From: Patescibacteria group bacterium
GTDB lineage: Bacteria > Patescibacteriota > Microgenomatia > UM-FILTER-40-11
Reading direction: 5' to 3'
Length of the DNA stretch: 64,000 bases
NCBI GenBank assembly: GCA_035530075.1
Contig: DATKVM010000005.1
Span: forward strand, 167,006 to 231,005
A program made the position numbers and the translations under genes. The notes below the pieces were generated by a model. That model ran no database searches. It was not told where the DNA came from and saw nothing but the letters and a program-made list of their open reading frames with translations. Below are positions 6,032 to 62,279 of this stretch, piece by piece (position 1 is the first letter of the stretch; each line of letters opens with the position of its first letter).

Positions 6032-6313
6032 CTCTCCATCTTAACCGAAGCTAATCTTAGTTTCAAGAAGGATAATTGACTTTGCTTTCCGAGGCTGAAT
6101 AGGATAAACTATACATATAAACGCTAGTCCATTCGGCAAGAAGTAGAGCGGAATTAGAATAGGTTATAGATTATCTTGGCGGAAAGGTTCGAGCGAAGAT
6201 CTGCCAAGATACCTTGTAAGGAAAAGTTTGCGAAAAACCAGAGGTTTTTCGCATGACAAGACCTGGTAGCCAAGTAGTAAGGCAGCGGTCTGCCCGCCCG
6301 CTTTCGCCAACGC

Positions 6314-6385
6314 GATCGCGTAGCCAAGTAGTAAGGCAAGTGTCTGCAAAACACTTATGCGTGGGTGCAATTCCCACCGCGATCT
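6314..6385 (+). tRNA. tRNA-Cys (anticodon GCA), predicted by manual folding
   Basis: Perfect 7-bp acceptor stem (GATCGCG/CGCGATC) with U8. Perfect 5-bp anticodon stem (AGTGT/ACACT) with loop CUGCAAA (U33, GCA, A37). 5-nt variable loop and 5-bp T-stem (GTGGG/CCCAC) with G53-C61. Discriminator is U73, the CysRS identity element. The D-arm is short (3 bp) and the T-loop is UGCAAUU (G55 instead of U). No CCA is encoded. Confidence 0.65.
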
Positions 6386-6485
6386 CAAGGAAGCTCAAGC
6401 GTTGGCGGGCGGGCAAAACCGCTATTTGAACGAAGTGAAAGCAAGCTATGCTTATGCGCGAGTGCAATTCTCGCCGTGGTCTCCA

Positions 6486-6878
6486 ATGAAATTGAAAATT
6501 AAAAAAGGAAATTTCAATCTGGAAACAGTACCCTTCAAAGGCTGGGTTCTGGGTCATTTCATCGATAAAAGCTCTCCTTTTTATAACGTTGATTTCGAGA
6601 TTAAGTGGGCACGACATCATAAAGGAGAGATCAAAGAAGCAAGATTAGAAACACCCGCCAGAACCTTATCAATCTTGATCTCCGGCAAGCAGATTACCAA
6701 ATTTTTTTCCACCGATGAAGAAGTTGTTCTGGAGAATGAAGGTGATTACCTTTTTTATCAGCCAAATGTCCCCCATGTTAATGAATATCCAAAAGACACT
6801 CTGCTTTTGGTCATCCGTTGGCCCTCTATTCCTATCCAAAAACAAATAATTCTTCTTCCGCCGAAGAGTTATTCTTGA
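6486..6878 (+). CDS. hypothetical protein (beta-rich, cupin-like?)
   Basis: Downstream part of listed ORF 6357..6878. The 5' extension of that ORF merely reads through the non-coding tRNA-derived repeats, so the start was moved to an ATG at 6486. Confidence 0.4.
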   Translation: MKLKIKKGNFNLETVPFKGWVLGHFIDKSSPFYNVDFEIKWARHHKGEIKEARLETPARTLSILISGKQITKFFSTDEEVVLENEGDYLFYQPNVPHVNEYPKDTLLLVIRWPSIPIQKQIILLPPKSYS

Positions 6879-7586: not shown

Positions 7587-7961
7587 ATGGCAGGATTTGT
7601 CACTAATATTGAAGAAGCAACCGAAAAAAACGAAAATTACCGCCAGGTTTTGTTTACTGCTCCTCACAGCCAGTTGGTTTTAATGACTTTGCAACCGGGT
7701 GAAGAGATTGGGATGGAGGTCCATCCGAATGTCGACCAATTTTTTCGCTTTGAGGAAGGTGAAGGGAAAGTAATTATCGATGGCGAAGAGCACGAGATTA
7801 AAGATGGCTTTGCCATAGTGGTCCCAGCCGGTAGTCAGCATAATATTATCAACACTTCCACTACCGAAGCCTTAAAGCTTTATACGATTTATTCCCCAGC
7901 CCAGCACCCGGACGGAACAATTCATGGAACTAAAGCGGAAGCGGTGGCTAAGGGAGATTAA
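7587..7961 (+). CDS. cupin-domain protein (cupin_2 type)
   Basis: 124 aa. His-containing cupin motifs (GMEVHPNVDQFF ... GEEHEIKDG ... PAGSQHNI) match the two-motif cupin beta-barrel. GGTGAGG RBS. Confidence 0.75.
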   Translation: MAGFVTNIEEATEKNENYRQVLFTAPHSQLVLMTLQPGEEIGMEVHPNVDQFFRFEEGEGKVIIDGEEHEIKDGFAIVVPAGSQHNIINTSTTEALKLYTIYSPAQHPDGTIHGTKAEAVAKGD

Positions 7962-8200
7962 GGGCGGCGAAAATCAGAACCCTCAAACTCTTTTCCATAA
8001 AGAAGTGTAGTTGTAGAATAACCTGCTTCGTTTAAATATTTCGCTACTAAGAAAGCCGCTTTCTTTAAAGGGATATCAGGCCGGAGAGTAACCACTCCCG
8101 CTGTGCCGATATCTTCCACCATCACATAAACACTCTTTCCCACCAGGTGATCTCCTTCCCAGTGTTCCGTCGGTACCAGAGTTAATCTTTCCCTCGACAT
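7958..8200 (-). CDS. hypothetical small protein
   Basis: Listed ORF 7958..8269 trimmed to the internal ATG at 8200. The upstream part overlaps the preceding gene and the repeated 18-bp intergenic motif. Confidence 0.3.
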   Translation of the reverse strand: MSRERLTLVPTEHWEGDHLVGKSVYVMVEDIGTAGVVTLRPDIPLKKAAFLVAKYLNEAGYSTTTLLYGKEFEGSDFRRP

Positions 8201-8223
8201 AGCTGGATTATACCAAAAGCTCA

Positions 8224-8240
8224 GGCGGCAAAAATTAGGG
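8224..8240 (+). repeat. copy of 18-bp intergenic motif GGCGGCAAAAATTAGGGG
   Basis: Exact 17/18 match. It lies between two minus-strand genes. Confidence 0.6.
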
Positions 8241-9011
8241 TTTTGCCATTTCAGGAAAGCACAAACCAAAATTATTCGTTTTTACAAACTGGTTTTTATA
8301 CATGGGGTGGGGCTCCGATTCTCCCTTGCTTCCGCCGCCTTTATACCAAACCCTATCCTGATTATGCTCATCCACCCAAAGCAAAGCCTTCGAGTTATAC
8401 ATCTCTGGATCTTTAAAAAAGTTGTTTTTTAAAAGGATAAAAAACCAAAAGTAATTAGATGGTTTATCAAAACCCTTTTCGTCTTCAAAGTACCTTATCA
8501 CCTGTTTATGATCTCCAACAACTCCCTCTACATCCTTGACTTTATTTTTCAGGTATTCCACCCGAATTTCTAAAGCATTAAGAGGAATTCCTTCTTTTTC
8601 AAAATGCAGATTATGCATTGGGTCAATTACCAGCCATTTTTGAAACTGGTTTGACCAAATGTCCGTAACGCCGTGGTGCCTTTCCTCTTCCCCCTGTCGG
8701 TGGTTATAATCCACCCCAAGCTTCCGGCAGTACCAGCCCAAAGCCGTCGCGCATTGCAAAAGGGCCAAAGAATAATGAGAGCAATAAAACTCCCCCTCTC
8801 GGGCGTCTCTCAAAATTTCAATTGCATTTTGATAACCTGGTTTAGGATTATTCCCGTGCGGAAGCGTCTGATAAACCCAGTCTTTGAGAAGCAGCTGCTT
8901 CTCAAATTCATTCCTTCCACTCTCCACCACTTTCTCCAGTTGAAATTCATTTCTAAGTTGAAGCGCCAGCGGATGATTAAAATGTTCCCAGACAAACTTT
9001 GGAATATCCAT
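8235..9011 (-). CDS. transglutaminase-like cysteine protease superfamily protein
   Basis: 258 aa. A Cys motif (FYCSHYSLALLQCATALGWYCRKLG) resembles the transglutaminase-like catalytic core, followed by His and Asp candidates (HHGVTD, VIDPMH). Confidence 0.6.
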   Translation of the reverse strand: MDIPKFVWEHFNHPLALQLRNEFQLEKVVESGRNEFEKQLLLKDWVYQTLPHGNNPKPGYQNAIEILRDAREGEFYCSHYSLALLQCATALGWYCRKLGVDYNHRQGEEERHHGVTDIWSNQFQKWLVIDPMHNLHFEKEGIPLNALEIRVEYLKNKVKDVEGVVGDHKQVIRYFEDEKGFDKPSNYFWFFILLKNNFFKDPEMYNSKALLWVDEHNQDRVWYKGGGSKGESEPHPMYKNQFVKTNNFGLCFPEMAKP

Positions 9012-9034
9012 TACCTAATTCTACCAAATCATCC

Positions 9035-9052
9035 GGCGGCAAAAATTAGGGG
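9035..9052 (+). repeat. copy of 18-bp intergenic motif GGCGGCAAAAATTAGGGG
   Basis: Exact copy. It lies 26 bp before ATG 9078, with a TAAAAT -10-like element between. Confidence 0.6.
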
Positions 9053-9077
9053 ATAAAATATCTGATAAAATCAAAGT

Positions 9078-9326
9078 ATGTCCAATTCGGACTACCAGTC
9101 TGTCCTCACCCTCATTTTCCTCGCTTCCGGCACAATCGGCTGTTGGCTATATGCTGTTAAGGGGTTAAAGAGCAAAAAAATTACTGTTGCCTTCAGAAGA
9201 ATGAAAGTAGCCGAGCTTACCGGCAAGAGCGCAATAAAATATAGTCTTATTTGGATTGTTTTTGCCCTCCTACTTACCATCTGTACCGTTAAATATCTCA
9301 CTTTGGTCCTGGCGGGAAAAGGATAA
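9078..9326 (+). CDS. small hypothetical membrane protein (2 TM)
   Basis: 82 aa with two hydrophobic helices. A -10-like TAAAAT lies just upstream. Confidence 0.4.
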   Translation: MSNSDYQSVLTLIFLASGTIGCWLYAVKGLKSKKITVAFRRMKVAELTGKSAIKYSLIWIVFALLLTICTVKYLTLVLAGKG

Positions 9327-9332
9327 AACTCC

Positions 9333-9350
9333 GGCCACAAAAATTAGGGG
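9333..9350 (+). repeat. copy of 18-bp intergenic motif (GGCCACAAAAATTAGGGG variant)
   Basis: 15/18 match. It starts 7 nt after stop 9326 and is followed by TATAAT and ATG 9381. Confidence 0.55.
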
Positions 9351-9380
9351 CACTAAAAATCCTCCTGCTATAATGCAAGT

Positions 9381-9845
9381 ATGGACAAAGAAGAATGGAA
9401 AGATTGGCTTAATGTTAAGCTTTTGCAAAAAGTGGCCATTGTTGACGAAGAAGGCAATATTTTGGTTTTAACCAGAAACCCTAAGAGTCCGGGCTCAAGA
9501 CCGGGCAAACCAGATCTTCCTGGCGGCAGTTTCTCTCCTGAAGATTTAACCAGCGAAGATAACCCCCACCTGGAAGCAGTTAAGAGAGAAATTAAAGAAG
9601 AAACCGGACTAACAGTCCAAAATATCGAAGTTATTCATGCTTCTTCAGGCATTAAACCAACTCAAACGGCCGGAAAAGTTTTGATAATGGCCCTTGGATA
9701 TAAAGCTGGTGTTAAAGGCGTTAAGCCGGAAGTAACTTTAGGCCAGGAACACACCGAATACCAATGGCTTCCCAAAAATGAAGCTCTTAGCCTCGACTTC
9801 GGCAATGATGGCGGCCTTCATAAAGCAATTATCGAAGCAATTTAA
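9381..9845 (+). CDS. NUDIX hydrolase
   Basis: A Nudix box is present (GGSFSPEDLTSEDNPHLEAVKREIKEETGL = GX5EX7REUXEEXGU). TATAAT lies 7 nt before the ATG, suggesting a leaderless-like start. Confidence 0.8.
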   Translation: MDKEEWKDWLNVKLLQKVAIVDEEGNILVLTRNPKSPGSRPGKPDLPGGSFSPEDLTSEDNPHLEAVKREIKEETGLTVQNIEVIHASSGIKPTQTAGKVLIMALGYKAGVKGVKPEVTLGQEHTEYQWLPKNEALSLDFGNDGGLHKAIIEAI

Positions 9846-9851
9846 ATTCTG

Positions 9852-9869
9852 GGCGGCAAAAATTAGGGG
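9852..9869 (+). repeat. copy of 18-bp intergenic motif GGCGGCAAAAATTAGGGG
   Basis: Exact copy 7 nt after the NUDIX stop. Confidence 0.6.
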
Positions 9870-9977
9870 CTTAAATTTTTCCCAAGGCCAAATTCTGGCA
9901 CATTTGATATGGTTTCTAGTCTTGGTTAAGGCCTAAACTATTGTGAAGGATAAGGTGAAAAATGCTACTATAATTAT

Positions 9978-10952
9978 ATGTCCCCTATAGATTATTTAGT
10001 CAGTTTATTATTACTATTACCACGCTGGGTAGCGCTACCCCCAATCTTTATTTTCTTAGCAATTCTTCTACTGAATTTCCCTGATTACTTAACAAGGTTA
10101 GGAATTACCAAAAACCGTCTAACTGTTAAAAAACTGTTTATCATCTTTACTGCTATCATAATTATCTATTTTGTTGGCGCCTTACCAATGTTGCTCAGCT
10201 TCAGAAATACCCAGGAAGACCTTAAAAGCAAGGTTAATGGTCTAAATCAAGATCTTTCTCATTGCAGACTTGGAACTGCCAGCAGCAACCCACCACAAAA
10301 TAATGGAGAACCTCCTCCACAAGAAAACTTACCTCTTTGTCAAGATTGGAATCAATGTACTAATTTCAAGAATGATTTCGGTTTAGATAATAGTTATTAT
10401 GTTCATACAGACGACGATCCTCAAGTATTGATATTGACAAATTCAGGCTCTTGGAAAACACCGCCATTATATTTTGAAAAAGAATGTTCACCCTTTTATT
10501 CATTTAGACTTGATGTTACTCCATTAAACTCTGAGGCTGCAAATATCATCATTGAGAGCAAAGAGATGTTTCAGTTATTTATCGGAGACGGTGATTACCG
10601 AAGCTTGGCATTTCTGAAATGGGATCAAAAAAGCAGCGGGTGGCAAAGGGAGGAGAATTCCAAAATTTTCTTAGGTCGTGACCTTAACCTTCCGGACATG
10701 GAATCCAAAACCCAATTTAGTGTCAGTATTGAAACGAGAAAAAAGGCCGGTAACGCTGAAGTAACCGTTAGTATAACTTACAAACCAGCTGGAGGAAAGA
10801 AAGAAAAAGAAACAGCGACATTTAGGAAAGAAATAGGCCTAGCGGCAGCAGAGCCAGAAAAAATCACAACAAAGGTCGGAATAGGAATGTATCACCCAGA
10901 TGGAAATATCCCTCAAGCAAAATTTTATTTTATGGGGCTTAGAAGTAGGTAA
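9978..10952 (+). CDS. hypothetical membrane-anchored protein
   Basis: 324 aa with two N-terminal hydrophobic helices and a Cys-containing extracytoplasmic domain. The region is AT-rich. Confidence 0.45.
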   Translation: MSPIDYLVSLLLLLPRWVALPPIFIFLAILLLNFPDYLTRLGITKNRLTVKKLFIIFTAIIIIYFVGALPMLLSFRNTQEDLKSKVNGLNQDLSHCRLGTASSNPPQNNGEPPPQENLPLCQDWNQCTNFKNDFGLDNSYYVHTDDDPQVLILTNSGSWKTPPLYFEKECSPFYSFRLDVTPLNSEAANIIIESKEMFQLFIGDGDYRSLAFLKWDQKSSGWQREENSKIFLGRDLNLPDMESKTQFSVSIETRKKAGNAEVTVSITYKPAGGKKEKETATFRKEIGLAAAEPEKITTKVGIGMYHPDGNIPQAKFYFMGLRSR

Positions 10953-10957
10953 CCAAT

Positions 10958-10990
10958 ATGCCCACCGGGCGGTGGGCATTTAATTTCATT
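10958..10990 (+). terminator. rho-independent terminator
   Basis: A 9-bp GC-rich perfect stem (ATGCCCACC/GGTGGGCAT) with a 4-nt loop is followed by TTAATTTCATTT, 6 nt after the stop codon. Confidence 0.55.
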
Positions 10991-11053
10991 TCAGCGGTTT
11001 ATCTCTTTAAACCTAAGCGACTCAACTTAATCCGTCGAAGTCTTGAAATCTGC

Positions 11054-11494
11054 CTAAAGGTTACCTTTTTCTTGAAGAGCGCGCTTTTCTGCCTTACCTC
11101 TGACCTTTTGCGCCTCTTTTTTCTTCATTTCTAACTCTCTCACCAAATTTTCTTTCAATTTTTCCTCAATTTCCGGGCTTTCCGGAATTTCAAAATCCGG
11201 ACTTTCGACCATCTCAATTGCCGCATCAAAGACTTCAGCCGAAGGGCAATATCTGTGACCCATTTCCCCGCTTGGCCTTGTGCCAAAAATTTTCTCCTGA
11301 AATTCCTGAAAGAATTGAAGCCTTCGTTCTCTTATTGTCTTTCCCCGCTCTTCTGGGCTAAACAATTCTTCAAGCCCCGTTGGTTCATTGGAGGCCTTCG
11401 CCAGATACAAAGCATCTTTTCTTTTCCAATCCTTAAGTCTGGTCGTCCATTCACCTAGATTTGATTCGCCTTCAAGATTGTCTACGCTGGTCAT
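11054..11494 (-). CDS. hypothetical protein with charged C-terminal helix
   Basis: 146 aa ORF with a good coding look and no recognisable motif. Confidence 0.4.
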   Translation of the reverse strand: MTSVDNLEGESNLGEWTTRLKDWKRKDALYLAKASNEPTGLEELFSPEERGKTIRERRLQFFQEFQEKIFGTRPSGEMGHRYCPSAEVFDAAIEMVESPDFEIPESPEIEEKLKENLVRELEMKKKEAQKVRGKAEKRALQEKGNL

Positions 11495-11634
11495 TTTAAA
11501 GCCCCTTTAATTTACACTTCAATCTAACAAAACACGACTCCTTCGTCAACCAAAGTGCCCTTCGCCAGAAGGGTACATAATTTCCCCCGTCCAATTTGAT
11601 CAGAGGAGTATAATTACTTTGAGGAGGATAGAAA

Positions 11635-12027
11635 ATGCTGACAGCAGAAATGCGTAGTACAAGGGAGGGCGAATTAAAAAGTCCCGAGCGTCAACGACTC
11701 TTCCATGTATTAACTGATTTTTTAATCGGCCAGTCTCCAGAGATTCCAGAAAATGCCTGTGCCTCAAGTCCTTTTCTTCTCATGGGCGGCTGGCTGCATC
11801 CGGTCGTAAATATGGAGACAGCGGAGAGAGAGGAAGGTCAAGGGGGAGAAATTGTAGGTTTAAGGTGGATAGATAATGAAGCAGTAAAAGCCCATCCCGG
11901 GGAAGATCCTGCTTGGGCAAAGATGGAAAAAGCAATGGCCCACGTTCCTGTCCAAGCCTTCTTTGTAAACTCGTCGAAGGATTTATCCTGCTTGCCCATC
12001 GTAACCCTGGTGAAGATGGGAGCGTAG
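11635..12027 (+). CDS. hypothetical protein
   Basis: 130 aa with GAGGAGG RBS and TATAAT upstream. The 3' end runs into a tandem 23-bp repeat. Confidence 0.35.
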   Translation: MLTAEMRSTREGELKSPERQRLFHVLTDFLIGQSPEIPENACASSPFLLMGGWLHPVVNMETAEREEGQGGEIVGLRWIDNEAVKAHPGEDPAWAKMEKAMAHVPVQAFFVNSSKDLSCLPIVTLVKMGA

Positions 12028-12058
12028 TCGAGGATTTATCCTGAGCGTAGTCGAAGGA

Positions 12059-14749
12059 TTACTTATTGGTGTGAGTACTTGCACCCATTTTGTCCTCCAC
12101 TGCCGCTTGGGCGGCGGCGAGCCGGGCAATGGGGACCCTGAATGGCGAGCAGGAAACATAGGTCAGTCCTACCCGGTGGCAGAATTTGATTGACTCCGGG
12201 TCACCGCCATGCTCACCACAAATTCCCACTTTCAGATTCTTTCTGACCGAGCGGCCTTTTTCGACTGCCATCTTAACGAGCTGCCCGACCCCGTCTTGGT
12301 CCAAAGTCTGGAATGGGTCAGCTTTTAAAAGCTTTTGGTCAAGATAAACTTTTATAAACTTCCCTGAATCATCTCTGGAAAAACCCATACACATCTGGGT
12401 CAAGTCGTTAGTGCCGCAAGAGAAAAATTCGGCTTCTTGGGCAACTTCATCGGCCGTTAAAGCGCCTCTAGGCACCTCAATCATCGTCCCGACATGGTAT
12501 TCCAGCTTGACGCCTTCTTCCTTCATCACCTCATCCGCCACGCGGACAACGACTTCCTTTTGGTGTTTAAGCTCGTTAACATTCCCAACCAAAGGAATCA
12601 TCACTTCCGGAATGACCTCCAGCTTTTCTTCTTTCTTAAGCTCACAAGCGGCCTGGAAAATGGCCCACGCCTGCATTTCGGTAATCTCCGGATAAGTAAT
12701 GCCTAAGCGGCAGCCGCGATGGCCAAGCATCGGGTTAAATTCGTGGAGTTCGGCCGACTTGGCCCAGATTTTCTCGGCGGGCACGCCGATTTTCTTAGAA
12801 AGCTCAACCGCTTCCTCCTCGGTCTTGGGCAAAAATTCATGAAGCGGCGGGTCCAAGGTTCTAATCGTTACCGGGAGTCCCTCCATTTCCTTAAAGAGCC
12901 CCTTAAAGTCCTCTTTTTGGAACTCAAGTAGTTTTTTGAGGGCTTTCCGCCGGTCTTCTTCATTGTCAGCCACAATCATTTCCTGCATAAAAGGCAGCCG
13001 GTCTTTGGCAAAGAACATATGCTCGGTTCGGCAAAGCCCGATGCCTTCGGCCCCGAATTTGCGAGCCACGACCGCGTCTCTTGGAATATCGGCATTGGCC
13101 CGAACCCCGATTCTTCTCGCTTCGTCCGCCCAGCCCATAAACTCGCCAAAGTCCCCGGTCATACTCGGCTCCATGGTCGGGACTTTGCCTAAAATCACCT
13201 CGCCGGTGCTGCCGTTTAGGGTAATAAACTCGCCCTCATGAAACTCTACCCCGCCAACCGAAAACTTCTTAGCTACCTCATCCACCCTGATATCTTCACA
13301 ACCGGCCACGCAGCATTTACCCATACTTCTGGCCACAATCGCCGCATGCGAAGTCATTCCGCCTCGGCCAGTTAAAATCCCTTGAGACATCGCCATTCCC
13401 GCAATATCATCCGGGTTGGTTTCCAAACGAACTAAAATCACTTTGTCCGTGTCTCCTTGAGTGACCGCGTCTTCCGAGGAAAAAACCACCTGGCCGACGG
13501 CCGCTCCCGGGGAGGCAGGCAAACCCTTGGCCAAAACTTCACACTTAGCGGTCGGGTCCAAAATCGGGTGCAAAAGCTGGTTTAAAGATTCCGGCTCGAC
13601 CCGCATTAAAGCCTCATCTTTGGTAATGAGCTTTTCCTTGACCATATCAACGGCAATTTTTACCGCCGCCAAAGCGGTTCTTTTACCGTTCCGGGTCTGA
13701 AGCATATAAAGCTTGCCTTTCTCAATCGTGAACTCAAAATCCTGGACATCCCGGTAATGCTTTTCCAAGCGGGAAGTAATTTCCTTAAGCTGCTTAAAAA
13801 CGGCCGGCATTTCGTGCTCAAGCTCGGTAATCGGCTTTGGCGTGCGCACGCCAGCAACCACATCCTCGCCTTGGGCATTGACCAAATATTCACCATAAAA
13901 AGCTTTTTCTCCAGTGGCTGGATTGCGGGTAAAACCAACGCCGGTAGCACAATCATTGCCTAAATTGCCAAAAACCATTGTCTGAACATTAACCGCTGTC
14001 CCTAAATCATCCGCAATTTTATTAAGCTTGCGGTAAGTAATGGCCCGGGGGTTGTTCCAACTCCTAAAAACCGCATCTTGGGCTAAATCCAGCTGAACTA
14101 AAGGATCTTGAGGAAAAGCCCGGCCGGTCTTTTCTTGAATCAGCTCTTTATACTTCCCCACCAAATCTTTAATGTCGGCCACTTTTAAATCCGTATCCAG
14201 CATGGCTCCAACTTCTTCTTTCTTTTTCCCTAAAATCTCTTCAAAAACCTCCTTGCCCAAACCTAAAACCACATCGCCGAAGGTATAGAGGAAACGGCGG
14301 TAAGAGTCCCAGGCAAACCAGTCATTGCCGGTTCTCTTGGCTAAGCCTTCCACAATTTTGTCATTCAAGCCTAAGTTCAAAACTGTATCCATCATTCCCG
14401 GCATGGAAAATTTAGCGCCGGAACGGACAGAAACTAAAAGTGGGTTTTCGACCTCGCCGAACTGCTTACCATTTACTTTCTCCAGCTTCTTGACCGCCGC
14501 TTCGTATTGTTCCTTAAATCCCTCTGGTAACTTATGCCCCCGGCTATAGAGAAACTTGCAGACCTCGGTGGTAATGGTGAATCCGGGCGGGACAGGAATA
14601 CCGGCGTTAGTCATCTCCGCCAAACCAGCGCCTTTGCCGCCTAAAAGATCCTTCATTTTGCCGTTGCCTTCGGCTTTGCCCTCACCAAAGAAGTAAACAT
14701 ACTTATTCTCTTTATTTGAACCGGAGGTTTTCCTTTTTGAAGTTACCAC
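12059..14749 (-). CDS. ppdK: pyruvate, phosphate dikinase
   Basis: 896 aa. It has the PEP-utilising phospho-His region (GGMTSHAAIVARSMGKCCVAGC), an N-terminal ATP-grasp and a C-terminal PEP/pyruvate-binding domain with RTEHMFF. Confidence 0.95.
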   Translation of the reverse strand: MVTSKRKTSGSNKENKYVYFFGEGKAEGNGKMKDLLGGKGAGLAEMTNAGIPVPPGFTITTEVCKFLYSRGHKLPEGFKEQYEAAVKKLEKVNGKQFGEVENPLLVSVRSGAKFSMPGMMDTVLNLGLNDKIVEGLAKRTGNDWFAWDSYRRFLYTFGDVVLGLGKEVFEEILGKKKEEVGAMLDTDLKVADIKDLVGKYKELIQEKTGRAFPQDPLVQLDLAQDAVFRSWNNPRAITYRKLNKIADDLGTAVNVQTMVFGNLGNDCATGVGFTRNPATGEKAFYGEYLVNAQGEDVVAGVRTPKPITELEHEMPAVFKQLKEITSRLEKHYRDVQDFEFTIEKGKLYMLQTRNGKRTALAAVKIAVDMVKEKLITKDEALMRVEPESLNQLLHPILDPTAKCEVLAKGLPASPGAAVGQVVFSSEDAVTQGDTDKVILVRLETNPDDIAGMAMSQGILTGRGGMTSHAAIVARSMGKCCVAGCEDIRVDEVAKKFSVGGVEFHEGEFITLNGSTGEVILGKVPTMEPSMTGDFGEFMGWADEARRIGVRANADIPRDAVVARKFGAEGIGLCRTEHMFFAKDRLPFMQEMIVADNEEDRRKALKKLLEFQKEDFKGLFKEMEGLPVTIRTLDPPLHEFLPKTEEEAVELSKKIGVPAEKIWAKSAELHEFNPMLGHRGCRLGITYPEITEMQAWAIFQAACELKKEEKLEVIPEVMIPLVGNVNELKHQKEVVVRVADEVMKEEGVKLEYHVGTMIEVPRGALTADEVAQEAEFFSCGTNDLTQMCMGFSRDDSGKFIKVYLDQKLLKADPFQTLDQDGVGQLVKMAVEKGRSVRKNLKVGICGEHGGDPESIKFCHRVGLTYVSCSPFRVPIARLAAAQAAVEDKMGASTHTNK

Positions 14750-33785: not shown

Positions 33786-35092
33786 AGTTCCTGAAAATAT
33801 TTTTGTTTCTTTAAAGATAGCGATTTAAGATTATCCGCTAAGGCCGAAAAAGAATATCTTAGACCCAATCGTCGACTCAAAAATCTCTGAGTCAATAGGA
33901 AAATGGAAAGCTCGGTTAAAACCGTTACTCCAGCCGCGGCGAAAAAGGAATACCGCGGGATCAAAAGCCAGTTTAAACCTAAATTAATCACCAGCGCCAC
34001 TAAAGAAAAAGAAAACAGTTCTTTCTGTTTACCTGTGGCAATCATTATATATCCCGTAAGGTGGTTAAGATAGGCAAAAACTGTCGCCAGGAGTAAAATC
34101 CGCAGGGCTAAAACTGAGGGGGCAAAATCGCTCCCCGCAATTATCCTAACTACTGGGGGCGCCAAAGGCAAACCAACCAGAAGGATAGCCAGTCCGCTTA
34201 GCAAAAGAACCGTAAAGGTTTTTTCAAAAGTTCTCTTCAAAATTGATGTCCCCTCCTCCAAGGAAGAGAGAAAAGGAAAAAGGCTGTTCATTAAAAAGGC
34301 CGCTCCCAGAATTAAATTACCATGAATTTTGTAAGCCAAACCATAATAACCCACAGCCGCGCTGTCAACGTAGGTTTTAATCATAAAAGAGTCAATCCCT
34401 CGGTCATAAACGGAATAAAGCAAAAGGTAAAGACCTAACGGTAAAGCTTCCCTCACTAGACGATCAGCTATTGGTCGCGAAAGCGTCGGTCGGAAAGAAA
34501 TAAAGTGGCGAGAAAATAACCAGCCCAAACAGCCGGACAAGAAGGCTCCGCCTAACCAAAACGCCATTAACCAATTTAAAGAGACCGCTTTGCCTGCCCA
34601 AAAAAGGCCACCAAGGGCTAAAAGGAAAACCCCCGCCGCCAGAATTTCTAGGAACGAAACTAAGTCCAGCCGAAATGATGATTGGAGCACTCCTTGCGCG
34701 GTTGTCCGCAGAACTAAAAAGAAAAGGACAAATGAAGCTAAAAAAGCGGGTTCACGCAAGTTCCTAAACTGCGGCAAAAAGAAAATCGCCAGATTCAAAA
34801 CCAGAAAAAGACAAAAAGAAGTAAAAAGGCGCAAGCTTAAAACATTGCCGAAAATTACTGAAGCCTCTCCTCTCTTTTTGGCTGTCTCTCTCACGGCAAT
34901 CGTGGTTATGCCTAAGTCAGACAGACCAACAAAAATCAAGACAAAAGCGGTGATAAAAACATAATCACCATAACCCGAAGCACCAACAAGACGAGTTAAG
35001 ACGGCGGTAGTTAAGAGAGACACTCCAACCACCACTCCCCGACCGAAAATCTGACTAAAGGTATTGAAGAATACTCGGGAACCAACTTTCAT
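33782..35092 (-). CDS. polysaccharide/O-antigen flippase (Wzx, MOP superfamily)
   Basis: 436 aa with about 12 TM helices. The N-terminal GRGVVVGVSLLTTAVLTRLVGASGYGDY is typical of Wzx/RfbX flippases. Confidence 0.8.
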   Translation of the reverse strand: MKVGSRVFFNTFSQIFGRGVVVGVSLLTTAVLTRLVGASGYGDYVFITAFVLIFVGLSDLGITTIAVRETAKKRGEASVIFGNVLSLRLFTSFCLFLVLNLAIFFLPQFRNLREPAFLASFVLFFLVLRTTAQGVLQSSFRLDLVSFLEILAAGVFLLALGGLFWAGKAVSLNWLMAFWLGGAFLSGCLGWLFSRHFISFRPTLSRPIADRLVREALPLGLYLLLYSVYDRGIDSFMIKTYVDSAAVGYYGLAYKIHGNLILGAAFLMNSLFPFLSSLEEGTSILKRTFEKTFTVLLLSGLAILLVGLPLAPPVVRIIAGSDFAPSVLALRILLLATVFAYLNHLTGYIMIATGKQKELFSFSLVALVINLGLNWLLIPRYSFFAAAGVTVLTELSIFLLTQRFLSRRLGLRYSFSALADNLKSLSLKKQKYFQEL

Positions 35093-35128
35093 TGCCTAAT
35101 TCTATCACTTTCAATGAGGAAGGCGCAG

Positions 35129-38638: not shown

Positions 38639-39991
38639 ATGAACAATAATTTCCTTTGGAAAAGCATTCAAGAAGAACTAAAAATTTCCGTTTCAAAAGC
38701 AATTTTTCAAACTCTTTTTCAAGGCACTCAATTGGTTTCTTTGGAGAACAATATCGCCACCATTGGTTGTCCCTCCGGTTATATCCAAAATTTAATCGAA
38801 AGCCGCTACTACAGTCTTTTAAAAGATGTCCTGGACCGGCAGACCAAAAATAACAACAGCCTTGTTTTTGTAATTAAGCCCCTCGCTTCTTCGCCCCTAG
38901 ACAGCGGTCCTCTCTTCAGTCAAAGCGCTACTTCCGAATCTGTCGTTCCTCGCATCGACCATCGTTTACGGTCAGATTTTACCTTTGAAAACTTCGCTGT
39001 TTCTTCTTCTAATCAACTTCCGTTTGCGGCCGCGACGGCCGTAGCCAGAAATCCTGGCAGCGCTTACAATCCGCTCTTCTTGTGGGGTGGGGTAGGAGTT
39101 GGCAAAACTCACTTAATGCAAGCGATTGGTCATGAAATTCTTAAAAAGAACCCGTCGGCCAAAGTCCTTTACTGTTTGGGCGAAGAATTTACCAACGAAA
39201 TTATTAATGCTATTCGAAACAAAACCACCGACCAGTTCAAAAAGAAATATCGAAGCACTAAAGTTTTACTCTTAGATGATGTTCAGTTTATCGCTGGCAA
39301 ACTTACCGTTCAAGAAGAATTTTTTCATACTTTTAATGCCGTTCAAAGAGAAGGCGGCCAAATTGTTCTAACCAGTGACCGCCCACCGGAAGAAATTGCT
39401 AAGTTAGAGGAACGGCTTAAGTCTCGCTTTGAGGCCGGTTTAATTGTCGATATTCCGACGCCCGATTTTGAACTAAGAACGGCCATTCTTCTCATCAAGG
39501 CTCGACAACGCAAACTGGAACTGGCGATGGACATCGCTCAGCTGATCGCTGCCAATATTGAGTCTAACCGCAAAATGGAGGGCTTTTTGACCCGATTAGT
39601 CACGGAGGCAGAAACGAGAGGTGTCTCCCTTTCGGTTGAGCTGGTAAACTCACTTTTGGGCAAAACCCTGGCAGAGAAGGAACTGGGGGAGAAAAATATC
39701 AAGCCTAAAGAAGTAATTGAAGCGGTGGCCAACTATTACCACCTCAAAGCCGCTCAATTAAAAAGTCAAAGCCGAGTAAAAGAAATTGCCTTTCCGCGTC
39801 AGGTTTTAATGTACCTTTTACGAGCGGAATTGAACTTGCCTTTAATGGAAGTTGGCAAGTTGCTGGGTGGTCGTGACCACACCACCATTATGTATGGTGT
39901 GGATAAGATTACCAACTTACTTCGGGAAAAGGAGGATTTACGAGTGGATATTTCTGGGATAAAACAGCGCCTTTCCCTACACCTCACCTAG
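38639..39991 (+). CDS. dnaA: chromosomal replication initiator DnaA
   Basis: 450 aa. AAA+ Walker A (GGVGVGKTHL), a sensor region and a C-terminal DnaA-box-binding domain (LPLMEVGKLLGGRDHTTIMYG). Confidence 0.97.
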   Translation: MNNNFLWKSIQEELKISVSKAIFQTLFQGTQLVSLENNIATIGCPSGYIQNLIESRYYSLLKDVLDRQTKNNNSLVFVIKPLASSPLDSGPLFSQSATSESVVPRIDHRLRSDFTFENFAVSSSNQLPFAAATAVARNPGSAYNPLFLWGGVGVGKTHLMQAIGHEILKKNPSAKVLYCLGEEFTNEIINAIRNKTTDQFKKKYRSTKVLLLDDVQFIAGKLTVQEEFFHTFNAVQREGGQIVLTSDRPPEEIAKLEERLKSRFEAGLIVDIPTPDFELRTAILLIKARQRKLELAMDIAQLIAANIESNRKMEGFLTRLVTEAETRGVSLSVELVNSLLGKTLAEKELGEKNIKPKEVIEAVANYYHLKAAQLKSQSRVKEIAFPRQVLMYLLRAELNLPLMEVGKLLGGRDHTTIMYGVDKITNLLREKEDLRVDISGIKQRLSLHLT

Positions 39992-39994
39992 GTT

Positions 39995-40184
39995 TTACAC
40001 TTATCAACAAAGATGGGGAAAGTTATCAACAAACTTGCTCACAATAAGTTAGGCATGTTGTAAACAGAAAGATAACCCGAAAATCGAAGCAAGCCTAGAA
40101 AAATATCAACTTTTACACAACGCCTACTACTACTACTACTATTTAAATAGATATTTAGTTAAAATTGATAAACAAAGGAGAGAA
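39995..40184 (+). promoter_or_regulatory. candidate oriC segment (dnaA-dnaN intergenic DnaA-box cluster)
   Basis: Two TTATCAACA boxes (40001-40009, 40023-40031) plus AGATAACCC and ATATCAACT variants, an AT-rich stretch and a (TAC)5 tract at 40126-40142. Confidence 0.45.
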
Positions 40185-41300
40185 ATGAAAATTCAAATTC
40201 TTCAGGAAAACCTTAACCGGGGTCTTAATATCGCTTCGCGATCTATTTCTTCTAAAGCTCAACTTCCCATTTTGGCAAATCTGCTTTTGAAAACCGATAA
40301 AAACCGACTCCAAATTTCCGCCACTAATTTAGAAATGGGAATTGCTCTTTGGTTAGGAACAAAAGTCGAAAAAGAAGGAGAGATTACGGTTCCGGCGAAA
40401 ATCTTAACGGAAATAGCGGCTTCCTTGCCACCGGGGAAAATAGATTTAACCGCGGAAGGCAATCTCTTAAAAATTGTCACTGAAGGTTATGAGGCAACCC
40501 TTAACGGGATCCCGGCTGGCGAGTTTCCCAAACTCCCCAGCTATAACGGGGAGGCACTTTTCTCTCTTCCAACCGAAAAATTCTTGGAAGCGATTAATCA
40601 GGTTGCTTTTGCGGCCGCTTCCGATGAAGGGCGGCCGGTCTTAACCGGAGTTTTGTTTAAACTGCAAGGGAAAAGACTCTCTTTGGCGGCGACTGACGGA
40701 TACCGGCTTTCTTTAAAAACCTTGGAACTAGAAAACCCCACCAAAGAGGACGTTTCTTTGCTCTTGCCCGCCAAAACCTTAATGGAGGTGGGACGGATTA
40801 TTGCCGATGAAAAATCTCCCACGGTTAAAATGGGATTCACTCGAGAGCAAAATCAAGTGGTCTTTGTCTTTTCCGATTTGGAACTTTTCTCGAGGGTAAT
40901 CGAAGGAGAATTCCCTGATTATGAAAAAATCATCCCCCAAAATCTTACCAGCAAGCTGGTTTTAGATCGGGAAGAATTTAGCCGAGCCATTAAAGTGGTG
41001 GCTATTTTTGCCCGGGATTCAGCCAATATTGTCCGATTAAAAATCAACAAGGACTCTTTAGAGATGAGCGCTAATTCACCCCAAGTAGGGGAGAATAAAA
41101 ACTCTCTTTCGGCTAAGCTTGAAGGAGAAGAAGGGGAAATTGCCTTTAACTTCCGCTTTTTACAAGGATTTTTAGGGGCAGTAACCACGGAAGAGATTTC
41201 TCTGGAAACGAATGGTTCTTTAAACCCCGGGGTTTTTAAGGCAGTGGGGGATGACTCTTTTCTTCACATTATTATGCCGGTCAGGCTACAGACAGAGTAA
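40185..41300 (+). CDS. dnaN: DNA polymerase III beta sliding clamp
   Basis: 371 aa with a three-domain clamp layout and typical N-terminus MKIQILQENLNRGLNIASRSIS. AAAGGAG RBS. Confidence 0.95.
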   Translation: MKIQILQENLNRGLNIASRSISSKAQLPILANLLLKTDKNRLQISATNLEMGIALWLGTKVEKEGEITVPAKILTEIAASLPPGKIDLTAEGNLLKIVTEGYEATLNGIPAGEFPKLPSYNGEALFSLPTEKFLEAINQVAFAAASDEGRPVLTGVLFKLQGKRLSLAATDGYRLSLKTLELENPTKEDVSLLLPAKTLMEVGRIIADEKSPTVKMGFTREQNQVVFVFSDLELFSRVIEGEFPDYEKIIPQNLTSKLVLDREEFSRAIKVVAIFARDSANIVRLKINKDSLEMSANSPQVGENKNSLSAKLEGEEGEIAFNFRFLQGFLGAVTTEEISLETNGSLNPGVFKAVGDDSFLHIIMPVRLQTE

Positions 41301-41968: not shown

Positions 41969-44422
41969 TTACTGACAATTACCGCCAGAGCAAAAACGCA
42001 GGTAAACCGATGGTCCGCCGGGCATCCCTGCCGGCGGCCTTTCGATTAACCCGACTCCGCCTTGAAGATCAAAGTTGGCTTCGGCAACCAAGAGTTTCAG
42101 AATTGTGGGGTGGTCTTCCGGTGGTCCAAGAACGGTGCTGATTACGATGCCAATATGTCCCGGTATTCCCCGCCAAACCGCAATATCACCTAGATTCGGC
42201 TCGGCAACCTTTTTATAGAATGAAGGATAGTCGTCGGCATAAAGGCCGGCATGGTCGAAACCACGGTTAATATTTTGGCCAATAGCTTCCGTGATCGCAA
42301 TGACAAATTGAAGACACTGCAGCGGGCATTCTTCCGGCTGACATACTGGGGGACAGCCGGGGGCAGAGTCGTAGCAATGGTAATACTGGAGGACTTCTTT
42401 CAGCCCCATTAAAGCGTCTCCACCGGCCAGGGAAACATTATTAAGACAATTGCTAATTGACGATCGGCTATCCCAATTAATTCGATTTTGATCAAAATTG
42501 CAGGGTGGATGAGTCAATAAGCAAATAACTTCTTCGGCCAAATGGCGGGGAGCTTGACACTCTGGTGGTTTGGCCACTGGCAATCCAGGGGCAGAAGGGG
42601 GACCGCCGCCTCCTCGGCCCAAAAGAGCGCTGTCTTTAACTTGATTATTAGTAAAGAAGGTCAGAAAAGCAATTAGAGCAATCGGGCCAATGGCGACCCA
42701 TTTGACCCAGCCAAATTCGTCTTTTGCTGGTTCCCATTGGCCGGTTATTCCTCCCAGGATTAAATTACCTAAGCCGAAGCCTGAGGTAATAAAGCCACCA
42801 ACCTTTTTTAATCTGGAAAAGACTTTTTTAGTTAGCCACTCTCCCGCTGCTGCCAATGCAGTCGCAATTAAACCACCACCTGGGATAGCAATGTTGAGTA
42901 GCGATGCCAAGCCAATTTTGGTTAGAAAACCCGCGATTCCTTTAGCCGCCACTTGTCTAGCCCCGGTTTTGGCCGTTGCCCAAAGCGCCTCCAGACTTTT
43001 TTGGCTGGCTCTTCTTAACCAAAGCTTAACCGCTTGCCCGGCACCAGTCTTAAAAAACCAATTTTTTACTCCCTGAACAATTTTGCCTAGGGGAGCGGTC
43101 GGCCTGAAAGTAGTAAAGATTTGTCTTACACGATTAATTTGCCAGAAAGTCGGTTCTTGGGAAAAATATTGAGTTTGAAACTGGCGCAATTCGTTAGCCA
43201 ATTGGAATAATTGTTGGCTGGTAAGGGATTGGGGATCGCCGGTAAGCCTTTGTTGGATTTGTCCTAGTTTCTCTAGTTCTTCTGCAGGAACGCCACTGGT
43301 TGTCAAGCAATAGAAAAGAGCTTTTTTCGGCTGGTCATTTAAGTCAGGATGTTTTGTTTGCCAGTGATTGCCCCAAGGATTGCCGGAAATTTCATAAAGT
43401 CCCACAAAAGGAACAAGTTTTTCATTAACAACCATTACTAGCGGAGAAAAAAGAGAGGCTTCGCCAGAAAGTGAACTGGCAGGCACAGATTTTTCTGCTT
43501 CTTTAGCTAACCGAAGAGCACGAGGATAGATTTTCTCTAAAGGAATTCCTTTAAATTCTTCTTTTGCCTGCAAAGCAGCGGTTTTTGCCACTCTTTCCCA
43601 GCCCAAATCTTTGGCCAGGGGCGCGAGAGAAACCAAGTTAGCCTCCAGGGTTTCTTTTAAGCGAAGTGCTTGTTCTTGTCTTAATGGCTGACTAAGGGAT
43701 TGAAGGCGCTCGGTTAAAGAGACTCTCTGATTGGCAGGCTGGTTTAATTGCTCGGCGAGCAAACTGAAGGTTTCTAAGGAAAGCGGCAGTTCTTTGGCTC
43801 CTTCCAGGGCGGTAGCTGGTAGAGTTTGTTGCCCAAGCAGTCCTTCCCACTCCTTTTGAAGAATGGCTTCTTTTTCAATCTGAGAAAGATTAGGGTTTGC
43901 CGCTGTTTTTCGAATAGAATTGGAAAAATCGCTGTCCGGCGGGAGATTTTCAATAATAGTTTGCCATTCAGGAGGGGGTTGGGCTTCAGGTTGGATTGAA
44001 GTCTCTTTGAGGGCTTTCAAGAGTTTTCTTCGGTTGTTCAAATCCTTTGCTAACTTACTTACCTCTTGGGCTAGCCCTTCCTGCTTGGCTGCCTCTTCAG
44101 CTTCTTTCTCTTTTTTCCGGCTTAATTCATCTCCTAGTTCAGCTAAGTTAACCGGAACGCTCCCGCCACCAGTTAGTTCTTCCTGTTTGAAAAGCCATTC
44201 CAGCCGCTCAAAAACTTCCTCAAAGGCTAAACTCTCATATTCTTCCAGGCTAATGAGCGTTAAGTTCAAAGCGTAAACTCGCAGAACTTGGTCAATTTGA
44301 TCAAAATCGGTTTCTTTCCCCTGCCGGTTCTTCAAGTCCAGAAACGAGCGTGCTTGACTGAGGAGTGAGGGGAGGTCAGCTAAGTAATTAAGGGTTTGGT
44401 TTTGGTTGAGCTGGTTGACCAT
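41969..44422 (-). CDS. T4SS-associated polytopic protein with C-terminal CHAP/NlpC-P60-type peptidoglycan hydrolase domain (PrgK/TraG-like)
   Basis: 817 aa. A helical N-half is followed by Gly-rich TM helices. The C-terminal domain has a Cys then His arrangement (CLQFV...GDIAVWRGIPGHIGIV) as in CHAP amidases. It is translationally coupled to the VirB4 gene (35-nt overlap). Confidence 0.55.
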   Translation of the reverse strand: MVNQLNQNQTLNYLADLPSLLSQARSFLDLKNRQGKETDFDQIDQVLRVYALNLTLISLEEYESLAFEEVFERLEWLFKQEELTGGGSVPVNLAELGDELSRKKEKEAEEAAKQEGLAQEVSKLAKDLNNRRKLLKALKETSIQPEAQPPPEWQTIIENLPPDSDFSNSIRKTAANPNLSQIEKEAILQKEWEGLLGQQTLPATALEGAKELPLSLETFSLLAEQLNQPANQRVSLTERLQSLSQPLRQEQALRLKETLEANLVSLAPLAKDLGWERVAKTAALQAKEEFKGIPLEKIYPRALRLAKEAEKSVPASSLSGEASLFSPLVMVVNEKLVPFVGLYEISGNPWGNHWQTKHPDLNDQPKKALFYCLTTSGVPAEELEKLGQIQQRLTGDPQSLTSQQLFQLANELRQFQTQYFSQEPTFWQINRVRQIFTTFRPTAPLGKIVQGVKNWFFKTGAGQAVKLWLRRASQKSLEALWATAKTGARQVAAKGIAGFLTKIGLASLLNIAIPGGGLIATALAAAGEWLTKKVFSRLKKVGGFITSGFGLGNLILGGITGQWEPAKDEFGWVKWVAIGPIALIAFLTFFTNNQVKDSALLGRGGGGPPSAPGLPVAKPPECQAPRHLAEEVICLLTHPPCNFDQNRINWDSRSSISNCLNNVSLAGGDALMGLKEVLQYYHCYDSAPGCPPVCQPEECPLQCLQFVIAITEAIGQNINRGFDHAGLYADDYPSFYKKVAEPNLGDIAVWRGIPGHIGIVISTVLGPPEDHPTILKLLVAEANFDLQGGVGLIERPPAGMPGGPSVYLRFCSGGNCQ

Positions 44423-46370: not shown

Positions 46371-46371
46371 C

Positions 46372-47025
46372 TTAAGCCTTCTTTTGGGCCTCTCTTTCAG
46401 CCGCGATCATTTCCGCATTATAAATGCCATAATAAAGCTTTATTAGCTCTTTGCTGATTAACTGTTTGGCGACTAAGCCCAGCCGGGCAGAGAGCTTAAT
46501 TAAATGGTCTCTTTTGGGGGTCAAAGCGGTCTTGGCTTTGGTAATGATATAGGTTTTAGCGTAGGGAAGCGAGGTAGTTTTCTTAAAAATTGAGGTGAGG
46601 GTTGGTGCTATTCCTAGCTCTAAAGAGGAAAAGGGGATAACGACATAAAATTTTTTGTCCAGAACATTGTTTTTTTTCACCATCTCGGCTACAAATTTAC
46701 GGTAGGAATTAATTAGGCCGGCCAAAAGGGGAGAGCTGCTCTTTTTCGCTTCTTGTTTTTCTAAAAGGTCCAAGTAGGAAGAGATATCTTTCCTTTCCGA
46801 GCGGAGTAAAATTTGAATTGAAAAAGTGAGTGAGTTCAAAAGAGCTCCATAGGCATAAATAATGGCTTCCTGTTCTCGCTCGGAGAGCAAGTCGAAATTT
46901 AGAGAAGAAACCGATAGAACCATCGCACACGAGCCGTCTTTGAGGATAACTAAATCGTCCTGAATATCCTCTATTGGCAGATGTTCTTGAGTGCTGGCAC
47001 GGATGGGAATTTGGGCAGGGTCCAT
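46372..47025 (-). CDS. hypothetical T4SS-locus protein (soluble)
   Basis: 217 aa with no TM. Its stop lies 1 nt before the VirB4 start, indicating operon coupling. Confidence 0.4.
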   Translation of the reverse strand: MDPAQIPIRASTQEHLPIEDIQDDLVILKDGSCAMVLSVSSLNFDLLSEREQEAIIYAYGALLNSLTFSIQILLRSERKDISSYLDLLEKQEAKKSSSPLLAGLINSYRKFVAEMVKKNNVLDKKFYVVIPFSSLELGIAPTLTSIFKKTTSLPYAKTYIITKAKTALTPKRDHLIKLSARLGLVAKQLISKELIKLYYGIYNAEMIAAEREAQKKA

Positions 47026-47102
47026 ATGTTTTTAGAACTTGAGAGAGGGAGAGCAGGAGAGTAGAAGTTTTTATACTCTTCTACTCTTACACTCTTCTAC
47101 TC

Positions 47103-47894: not shown

Positions 47895-47991
47895 CGATAT
47901 TTAAATCTTACTTTTTCCGGCAACCGCTTTCAACGGTAACAAAGTGGGTCAGAAACTACTTAAAGACAGTTAAATTTGCTACCATTAGATT

Positions 47992-54548: not shown

Positions 54549-54646
54549 ATTTTTAGTCTAACATAACTATCTTGAGAGTAAAAGAAGTTGTCAAACTCAA
54601 AAGCGCCAACTTTCGCTGGCGCTTCCATTTTTCTTCCTTAACTTGC

Positions 54647-55081: not shown

Positions 55082-55094
55082 CCCCTTTCGGTAA

Positions 55095-62277: not shown

Positions 62278-62279
62278 TA

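Follow-up and report, generated by a model that had tools for sequence, protein, structure and literature searches.

Integrons are the best-known bacterial system for storing and shuffling single-gene cassettes at a dedicated site. Other gene modules also depend on short sites: the pdif (XerC/XerD-site) modules of Acinetobacter plasmids are bounded by 28-bp sites of alternating orientation, each made of two partly symmetric 11-bp arms and a 6-bp spacer; and cis-mobilizable elements (CIMEs), integrative elements that lack an integrase and undergo tandem accretion, form islands of kilobase size that usually lie at tRNA genes, one or a few to a site. In T4-type phages, small open reading frames (ORFs) are shuffled by recombination between repeated promoter-terminator motifs, the promoter-early stem-loops or PeSLs (PMC2839356, PMC4122927). 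Here, we examine a 64,000-nt stretch of DNA from a Patescibacteria group bacterium (GCA_035530075.1, contig DATKVM010000005.1, positions 167,006–231,005; hereafter, the window), in which copies of a short asymmetric motif, consensus RGYGGCAAAAATTAGGRG, punctuate a run of small genes. Comparison with related loci indicates that this motif is a cassette boundary and a recombination joint, and not a −35 or promoter element, because the content and order of the genes differ between relatives and homology breaks inside the motif. In behavior the locus is of a known kind, a site-delimited gene-cassette array. It differs from integrons, pdif modules and PeSLs in that its site is short, sequence-defined, asymmetric and free of a hairpin, its cassettes are leaderless and lie in either orientation, and no integrase is linked to it. 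Among the papers searched on cassettes, integrons and recombinases of Patescibacteria and the Candidate Phyla Radiation (CPR), we found no description of such an array.

The first-pass annotation of the window, made from the sequence alone, reported four near-exact copies of the motif in the same orientation (at 8224, 9035, 9333 and 9852) and a degenerate fifth at 7962. Searching both strands of the 64 kb with GGCGGCAAAAATTAGGGG as the query, and allowing up to 3 mismatches, returns exactly those four, with 0–2 mismatches, all on the plus strand and all within a span of 1.65 kb. Dinucleotide shuffles yield 0.16 matches by chance, and four were reached in 0 of 100 shuffles. The copies, including the degenerate one, are as follows.

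7963–7980, plus strand: probable decayed first copy, GGCGGCGAAAATCAGAAC, matching at 13 of 18 positions; 1 nt past the cupin stop codon
8224–8241, plus strand: copy 2, GGCGGCAAAAATTAGGGT, 1 mismatch
9035–9052, plus strand: copy 3, exact; between the divergent genes for a 258-aa (minus) and an 82-aa (plus) protein
9333–9350, plus strand: copy 4, GGCCACAAAAATTAGGGG, 2 mismatches; between the 82-aa and NUDIX genes
9852–9869, plus strand: copy 5, exact; 6 nt past the NUDIX stop codon, and the last intact copy of the window array

The conserved length of the motif family is about 22–25 nt, and a repeat finder also detects this family, with a length of 25 nt. When the copies are aligned with 40 nt on either side, conservation is limited to about 18–22 nt and ends a few bases outside the 18-mer. 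At the array, the strand on which the motif is G-rich shows negative GC skew.

We compared the window with six related loci from metagenomes or metagenome-assembled genomes, five of them fetched as contigs that encode homologues of the NUDIX hydrolase, the 258-aa protein or a 195-aa protein from the flank of the array. A metagenome scan with the exact 18-mer yielded one related contig, L026. This contig carries an orthologous NUDIX gene (88% amino acid identity) whose upstream motif copy is placed as in the window, and a second copy, with 1 mismatch, lies 973 bp away, beyond a different neighboring gene. Copies in all loci were scored with a matrix built from 18 copies, a score of at least 20 bits defining a strong copy. 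The other five relatives have the following copies.

L050, plus strand: strong copies at 150, 666 and 1505; no weak copies
L051, plus strand: strong copies at 227, 1213 and 4272; no weak copies
L052, plus strand: strong copies at 1798, 2926, 3555, 4236, 4533 and 4994; no weak copies
L056 (GCA_040961635.1), minus strand: strong copies at 5294, 5621, 6432 and 8340; weak copy at 7186
L177 (GCA_040961665.1), minus strand: strong copies at 8957, 9621, 9960 and 10771; weak copy at 12065

Together, the seven loci hold 26 strong copies. An 11-nt core, CAAAAATTAGG, is invariant among them, and the flanks carry almost no information. All 26 lie in direct orientation, reading from the cupin gene toward the gene for pyruvate phosphate dikinase (PPDK), and wherever these flanking genes are present, every copy falls within the interval between them. 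The spacing of the copies is 261–1128 bp, and the intervals hold whole genes. The motif is unchanged between genomes whose 195-aa flank proteins are 69% identical and whose 258-aa proteins are 75% identical; judged from these sequences, it is conserved far beyond its surroundings. No strong copy is present in the approximately 110 kb of surrounding sequence in the motif-bearing genomes, or in the 64 kb of the window apart from the four. Two window matches of 17–18 bits sit in conserved coding genes, and L177 has one of these as well, in its orthologous gene; chance alone predicts about one match of that score. More distant homologues of the NUDIX protein (57% identity, L055) and the 258-aa protein (62% in L178 and 65% in L180–L183) occur in ordinary gene contexts with no motif.

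The exact 18-mer occurs as 5 singletons, in unrelated taxa, among 185,579 representative genomes, and as 24 single-match stretches among metagenome contigs of the Joint Genome Institute, with L026 the sole relative; since the contigs Ga0307379_10014984 and GCA_040961635.1, which are known to bear the motif, were missed in both, absence from these collections says little. Viral contigs gave at least 120 singleton matches, none of them multi-copy among the matches listed.

The degenerate copy deserves separate comment. Its best register is 7963–7980, one base from the position first proposed, and it scores 9 bits, a value equaled or bettered by about 20 chance matches in the window; by itself, this is not significant. 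The copy lies in the 3′ end of the 80-aa minus-strand ORF, which reads through it. It is nevertheless probably a decayed first copy of the motif, because an intact copy occupies the same place, directly after the cupin gene, in L052 (at 1798) and L051 (at 227).

The genes of the array and its two flanks in the window are listed below.

7587–7961, plus strand: cupin gene, conserved left flank; Shine-Dalgarno-type leader, not leaderless; stop codon at 7959–7961
7958–8200, minus strand: cassette 1 gene, 80 aa, no assigned function; leaderless, TGgTATAAT-N6-ATG
8235–9011, minus strand: cassette 2 gene, 258 aa, transglutaminase-like; leaderless, TGgTAGAAT-N6-ATG
9078–9326, plus strand: cassette 3 gene, 82-aa small membrane protein; leaderless; stop codon at 9324–9326
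9381–9845, plus strand: cassette 4 gene, NUDIX hydrolase, 154 aa; leaderless; stop codon at 9843–9845
9870–12058: distal variable region with no intact motif copies; genes for 324-aa (plus, leaderless), 146-aa (minus) and 130-aa (plus) proteins
12059–14749, minus strand: PPDK gene, conserved right flank, conserved in relatives

From left to right, then, the order is cupin (plus), 80 aa (minus), 258 aa (minus), 82 aa (plus), NUDIX (plus), 324 aa (plus), 146 aa (minus), 130 aa (plus) and PPDK (minus). The transglutaminase-like label of the 258-aa protein comes from its NCBI name and from PF01841 in its homologues. PADLOC, run on the array genes and their neighbors, gave a single match, a weak one of the NUDIX protein to the candidate family PDC-S07.

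The placement of the motif relative to these genes is as first described. The cupin stop codon is the point at which the array starts in all relatives, and the stop codons of the 82-aa and NUDIX genes each end 6 nt before a copy (at 9333 and 9852, respectively). The starts of both minus-strand genes lie 23 nt to the left of a motif copy, behind a TGgTAnAAT box. The copy at 8224 does lie between these two minus-strand genes, as the first-pass annotation had it, with the refinement that it overlaps the second: its TTA (8235–8237) is the stop codon (TAA) of the 258-aa gene. Other minus-strand genes likewise end on a TAA supplied by the motif, namely those at 677 in L050, at 1809 and 2937 in L052 and at 6436–6438 in L056.

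The unit between two direct copies is usually one small gene, in either orientation, of 0.26–1.1 kb, and up to 6 units stand in a row. All-against-all comparison of the encoded proteins identified the units that are shared among loci: the NUDIX unit occurs in 6, the 258-aa unit in 4, His_Phos_1 in 3, and the 82-aa, 80/92-aa, 90-aa, Asp_Glu_race and NUDIX-175 units in 2 each. About 20 gene families (among them Bro-N, Fic, Flavodoxin_2, Lactamase_B, BSP and SocA_Panacea) are confined to one locus. The shared units are permuted. In the window the order is 80 aa, 258 aa, 82 aa, NUDIX; in L050, NUDIX precedes a 257-aa gene; and in L056, the 258-aa unit precedes a 92-aa homologue of the 80-aa gene, which is the opposite side of the 258-aa cassette from that seen in the window. 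L052 has an additional 90-aa unit inserted between the 82-aa and NUDIX units, the slot of His_Phos_1 differs between L056 and L177, and the neighbors of NUDIX differ among its 6 loci. Each gene nonetheless keeps a constant orientation relative to the motif across loci, as expected for a directional site.

The limits of nucleotide homology coincide with the motif. For the NUDIX unit, homology covers window positions 9338–9867, motif to motif, and nothing beyond; for the 82-aa unit, window 9035–9349 corresponds to 4236–4549 of L052, again motif to motif. Homology of the left flank ends at 7960, in the cupin stop codon. At the junctions of the 258-aa and 80/92-aa units, homology is restricted to one side of the motif and is lost from the first base on the other: when the window, L050 and L056 are aligned at the copy at 8224, the left side is unrelated and the right side homologous, and at the copy at 9035 the left side is homologous and the right side unrelated. 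The copies that flank the 258-aa cassette are 811 bp apart, start to start, in both the window and L056. Chimeric assembly does not account for these patterns, because the arrangements recur in independent assemblies and the repeat is much shorter than the assembly k-mer: a locus identical to that of the window is found on an ENA contig of 255 kb and, independently, in at least 10 further assemblies, the L052 arrangement is found in 3 assemblies, and 18 bp is far below the k-mer implied by "k141" contig names. By this comparison, units are gained, lost and reordered between relatives, with the joints inside the motif. Of the functions first considered for the motif, a cassette boundary or recombination site is the one that the presence, absence and order of cassettes in relatives support.

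The other early suggestion was a promoter or operator element, such as an activator site or a sigma-specific −35 region. A purely cis-regulatory role (operator, UP-like A-tract or −35 region of an alternative sigma factor) would require that breakpoints coincide with the motif merely since it fills short spacers, and we regard it as quite improbable. The array does have a characteristic expression signal. An extended −10 box followed by 6 nt and a start codon (TGNTANNAT-N6-ATG, or TGnTAnnAT-N6-ATG) occurs 7 times in the window, compared with 0.31 expected, and 5 of the 7 belong to five consecutive array genes (window 8198–9980); the remaining 2 mark where a Polysacc_synt gene and a methyltransferase gene start (35090–35107 and 47977–47994). 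Many cassette genes of the relatives share the design, and the cupin flank gene has a Shine-Dalgarno-type leader, GGGGGTGAGG, instead. The leaderless starts first proposed at 9078 and 9381 are indeed preceded by TGaTAAAAT and TGcTATAAT, respectively, each plus 6 nt. We take this arrangement to be a leaderless mRNA design, by which many cassettes are predicted to be self-expressing.

Some copies of the motif are well placed to act on such promoters. They lie just upstream of them, at 18–19 nt from TATAAT for the NUDIX cassette and for an unrelated cassette of L050 (at 1553), and at 11 nt from the −10 box for the minus-strand 80-aa and 258-aa genes; in addition, the window includes a gene for an extracytoplasmic function (ECF) sigma factor. 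However, the orientation of the motif is fixed whatever the direction of the gene, and a fixed distance to starts, another early expectation, is not seen: the distances to −10 boxes vary (11, 13, 18–19 and about 86 nt), the overall range runs from 11 to more than 100 nt, and many copies abut gene 3′ ends only. In L051, a 54-bp deletion relative to L050 and L052 (L051:2440–2480) fuses two cassettes and removes the motif upstream of NUDIX, yet the TATAAT-N6-ATG of that gene is retained. A consensus scan found no sigma-70 promoter or intrinsic terminator spanning any motif copy of the window, the nearest predicted promoter match (TTGCCA-18-CAAAAT) starting at 8243, just past copy 2. The motif is also absent from all other genes examined in the approximately 110 kb of flanks, and homology stops within 1–2 nt of the motif despite 23–30 nt of intergenic sequence.

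How does the array compare with integrons, to which it was likened at the outset? The likeness lies in behavior. As in integrons and clusters of attC sites lacking an integron integrase (CALINs), there is a fixed chromosomal platform of mostly single, small accessory genes separated by a uniformly oriented repeated site; content and order vary between close relatives, joints fall in the site, and old sites decay. The NUDIX, cupin, toxin-antitoxin-like and Fic genes resemble cassettes of chromosomal integrons, and TTAGGG in the motif resembles TTRRRY. The molecular features are different. An attC site is a structure-conserved hairpin of 57–141 nt with imperfect inverted repeats (R″-L″ ... L′-R′), whereas the conserved unit here is a non-palindromic duplex of about 18–22 nt, conserved in sequence, with no hairpin. 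For 18 copies, the best reverse-complement match within ±150 nt was 8–12 of 18 positions, compared with 9.5–10.8 in shuffled sequence, and this absence of an inverted R″/L″ partner effectively refutes an attC-type site. All copies read ATTAGG(G/A)G where a G|TTRRRY cassette joint would be expected; the first base is A rather than G, and the seventh is a purine rather than a pyrimidine. A complete integron (intI, attI and the Pc promoter) is also not apparent, with no recombinase domain found within ±10 kb of the window, L056 and L177 or in 50 window ORFs. Nor are the cassettes promoterless, co-oriented and driven from Pc: they lie in both orientations, and 5 of 5 array genes in the window have TGnTAnnAT-N6-ATG. 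The host, moreover, is a CPR bacterium. There is, in our estimation, next to no chance that this is a genuine integron cassette array, or a CALIN, whose attC sites are unusually short.

Other described systems share some features with the array and lack others. Like pdif modules, it consists of discrete gene modules with short recombination sites, and the recombinase of pdif modules is encoded outside the module; a Xer/pdif site is rejected, since the consensus is asymmetric and the 26 copies are all direct, never alternating. CIMEs, and the microcin H47 island that has been named beside them for comparison (PMC3191183), resemble it in their direct-repeat, att-like cores, in the lack of recombination genes of their own and in their reliance on functions acting in trans. 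Here, by contrast, units are single genes of 0.26–1.1 kb, as many as 6 following one another, and the neighboring tRNA-Cys gene is not where they lie. Direct repeats are present; no integrase-bearing element that uses the motif was found in the DNA examined, and no integrase was seen with the type IV secretion system (T4SS) genes of the window. PeSLs, in the hyperplastic regions of T4-type phages, are similar in that a short intergenic motif flanks small ORFs that lack functional annotation, and in that the breakpoints of indels and replacements between relatives fall in the motif, as they do here. PeSLs are composed of a sigma-70 promoter and a terminator hairpin, with a demonstrated regulatory function, and mini-circles have been proposed as intermediates in the movement of their cassettes (PMC2839356, PMC4122927). 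In our case, the consensus scan reported no promoter or terminator across the motif, which has no inverted partner and occurs at a single locus, on a bacterial chromosome.

Repeats of the REP (repetitive extragenic palindromic), BIME (bacterial interspersed mosaic element) or MITE (miniature inverted-repeat transposable element) type were also considered and rejected: the motif is non-palindromic and restricted to one interval of about 4–6 kb, with none elsewhere in the 64 kb or in the flanks of L056 and L177. A REP-like repeat is seen in L055 (5347–11998), where a palindromic 25–40-nt sequence, ACGTCATYCTGAACTTGTTTCAGRATCT, has five dispersed copies and is unrelated to the motif. A CRISPR array (repeats of 23–50 bp, spacers of 25–70 bp) can be set aside as well, given copy spacings of 261–1128 bp, whole genes between copies and no cas genes.

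What moves the units? The array occupies one fixed slot, between the cupin and PPDK genes and about 30 kb from oriC. We think the chances are roughly even that the motif RGYGGCAAAAATTAGGRG both bounds the units of a chromosomal gene-cassette array and serves as their crossover site, with an unlinked recombinase acting on it; the array occurs in a narrow clade of Patescibacteria. A recombinase encoded elsewhere in the genome would recognize the asymmetric core and excise a unit as a circle bearing one copy of the motif. Such circles would be re-inserted at any copy, regenerating direct repeats on both sides. The array would be a platform for gene capture and shuffling, analogous to a sedentary chromosomal integron, and copies that acquire mutations would freeze their cassette in place and then decay. 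More tentatively, the array may represent an undescribed gene-capture platform of the CPR/Patescibacteria, mechanistically unlike the integron, with leaderless single-gene cassettes, an asymmetric duplex core (CAAAAATTAGG) and a dedicated unlinked recombinase, possibly of a new kind.

A number of observations weigh against a dedicated recombinase. No integrase was visible in the first-pass annotation, and this holds up: precomputed Pfam annotation shows no recombinase domain in the ±10 kb mentioned above, and Pfam scans of the 50 window ORFs, which together with that annotation cover most but not all ORFs of at least 100 aa, show none either. The motif lacks dyad symmetry and an inverted partner, in agreement with its early description as non-palindromic, and this is unusual for the core site of a tyrosine or serine recombinase. 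The loci compared include no excised circle, empty site or within-population variant, and there is one array per genome, in the 20–64 kb or so examined for each. More than one gene is present in some intervals, and motif copies are missing from the distal third of the variable region. In principle, 18 bp of identity could support recombination with no dedicated enzyme. The 195-aa flank protein, considered as a candidate site binder, has no match in PDB sequences, Pfam, NCBIfam or PADLOC. Its AlphaFold2 model has a mean pLDDT (predicted local distance difference test) of 56, is confident only in the helical C-terminal half, and finds no PDB fold match at E < 0.5.

The main alternative, which we consider less likely, is that the shuffling is driven by homology, as with PeSLs. 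The motif would then be kept as the binding site of a host protein, such as an array-specific regulator or a nucleoid protein, with no dedicated recombinase. Units would be lost by slippage or RecA-independent deletion between direct copies, and gained or replaced by recombination of transformed DNA, anchored by the 18–25 bp of the motif with or without a shared neighboring cassette. The breakpoints and permutations fit this model too, as do the asymmetry of the motif and the lack of a recombinase nearby, and a position 11–19 nt from −10 boxes on either side is plausible for a regulator. On the other hand, 18 bp is shorter than the usual length of an efficient RecA substrate, and the 90-aa insertion in L052 needs either a circular intermediate or two crossovers within one 18-bp site. 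Furthermore, none of the genes conserved with the array encodes a regulator, the 195-aa neighbor has no DNA-binding or other fold match, and a motif confined to one locus is more readily explained as a dedicated site than as a general regulatory signal. There are precedents for homology-driven shuffling (PMC2839356, PMC4122927, PMC3191183, PMC5426353); the last of these is reported to concern RecA-independent deletion between short direct repeats, related to the microcin H47 island (PMC5426353).

If a dedicated recombinase does serve the array, it would be an independent addition to the known mechanisms of gene capture. Its expression logic would also be different, with many cassettes carrying a 15-nt leaderless promoter-start module. 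The array could provide a handle on the flexible accessory gene pool of the ultra-small, host-dependent CPR bacteria, which have genomes of about 1 Mb, and the motif would be an easy search key for mining cassette pools in metagenomes. The cognate enzyme, if any, would be a compact site-specific recombinase whose target, at 18 bp, is simple. Separately, in a lineage that lacks the motif, a homologue of the 258-aa protein (65%) adjoins a 491-aa large serine recombinase, an HTH_17 excisionase-like protein and SpoVG (L180:127–4304, also in L181); this block is probably an integrated element unrelated to the array.

The wider setting of the array has several features of its own. The genes dnaA and dnaN, at 38639–41300, mark the minimum of cumulative GC skew, which places the chromosomal origin inside the window, and the array lies about 30 kb to the left of it. 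T4SS genes flank the origin region (41969–47894, 54093–56740 and 61591–63464); the set comprises a TraG/VirB4-like ATPase, a PrgI-family protein and at least five T4SS_pilin paralogues, and neither a relaxase nor an integrase was seen among the window ORFs scanned by Pfam.

To the left of the cupin gene, a tRNA-Cys(GCA) gene (6314–6386) is nested in what appears to be a second, disrupted tRNA-Cys (6262–6486). L052 has an intact tRNA-Cys, with which the 5′ half of the outer gene (6262–6297) shares 97% identity. An inverted repeat, CCGCCCGC/GCGGGCGG, delimits the insert, which splits the outer anticodon between C35 and A36; the outer gene resumes with AAAACCGC at 6414, and after it come some 31 additional nt and then a degenerate T-arm and acceptor (6450–6486). 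This arrangement may be the scar of an integration in the anticodon loop that brought a replacement tRNA, or a nested duplication. In L056, and in this relative only, a gene for a RecD2/TraA-like SF1B helicase (388 aa; L056:10640–11806) sits between the 196-aa flank gene and tRNA-Cys, at the position taken in the window by the nested tRNA-Cys and a cupin-like ORF.

Three further sequence elements were noted. An element of about 100 bp is shared by L050 (30–130), L051 (2361–2461) and L052 (4875–4975), with 93–94% conservation, far above that of its surroundings. It holds a hairpin, AGATGTAAGG...CCTTACATC. The minus-strand gene downstream of it differs between loci (a 90-aa gene in L052, Fic in L051), and the element may act as a common 5′ untranslated region, as a regulatory RNA or as a promoter module. 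In the window, the 324-aa gene is followed by a strong, terminator-like hairpin, ATGCCCACCgggcGGTGGGCAT, with a T-rich tail (10958–10979); this hairpin is 91% conserved at 7770–7803 of L052, at the distal end of the variable region, where the neighboring genes differ. Finally, a near-tandem duplication, GAGCGTAGTCGAGGATTTATCCT / GAGCGTAGTCGAAGGATTA, is present at 12017–12060 of the window, between the 130-aa ORF and the stop codon of PPDK.

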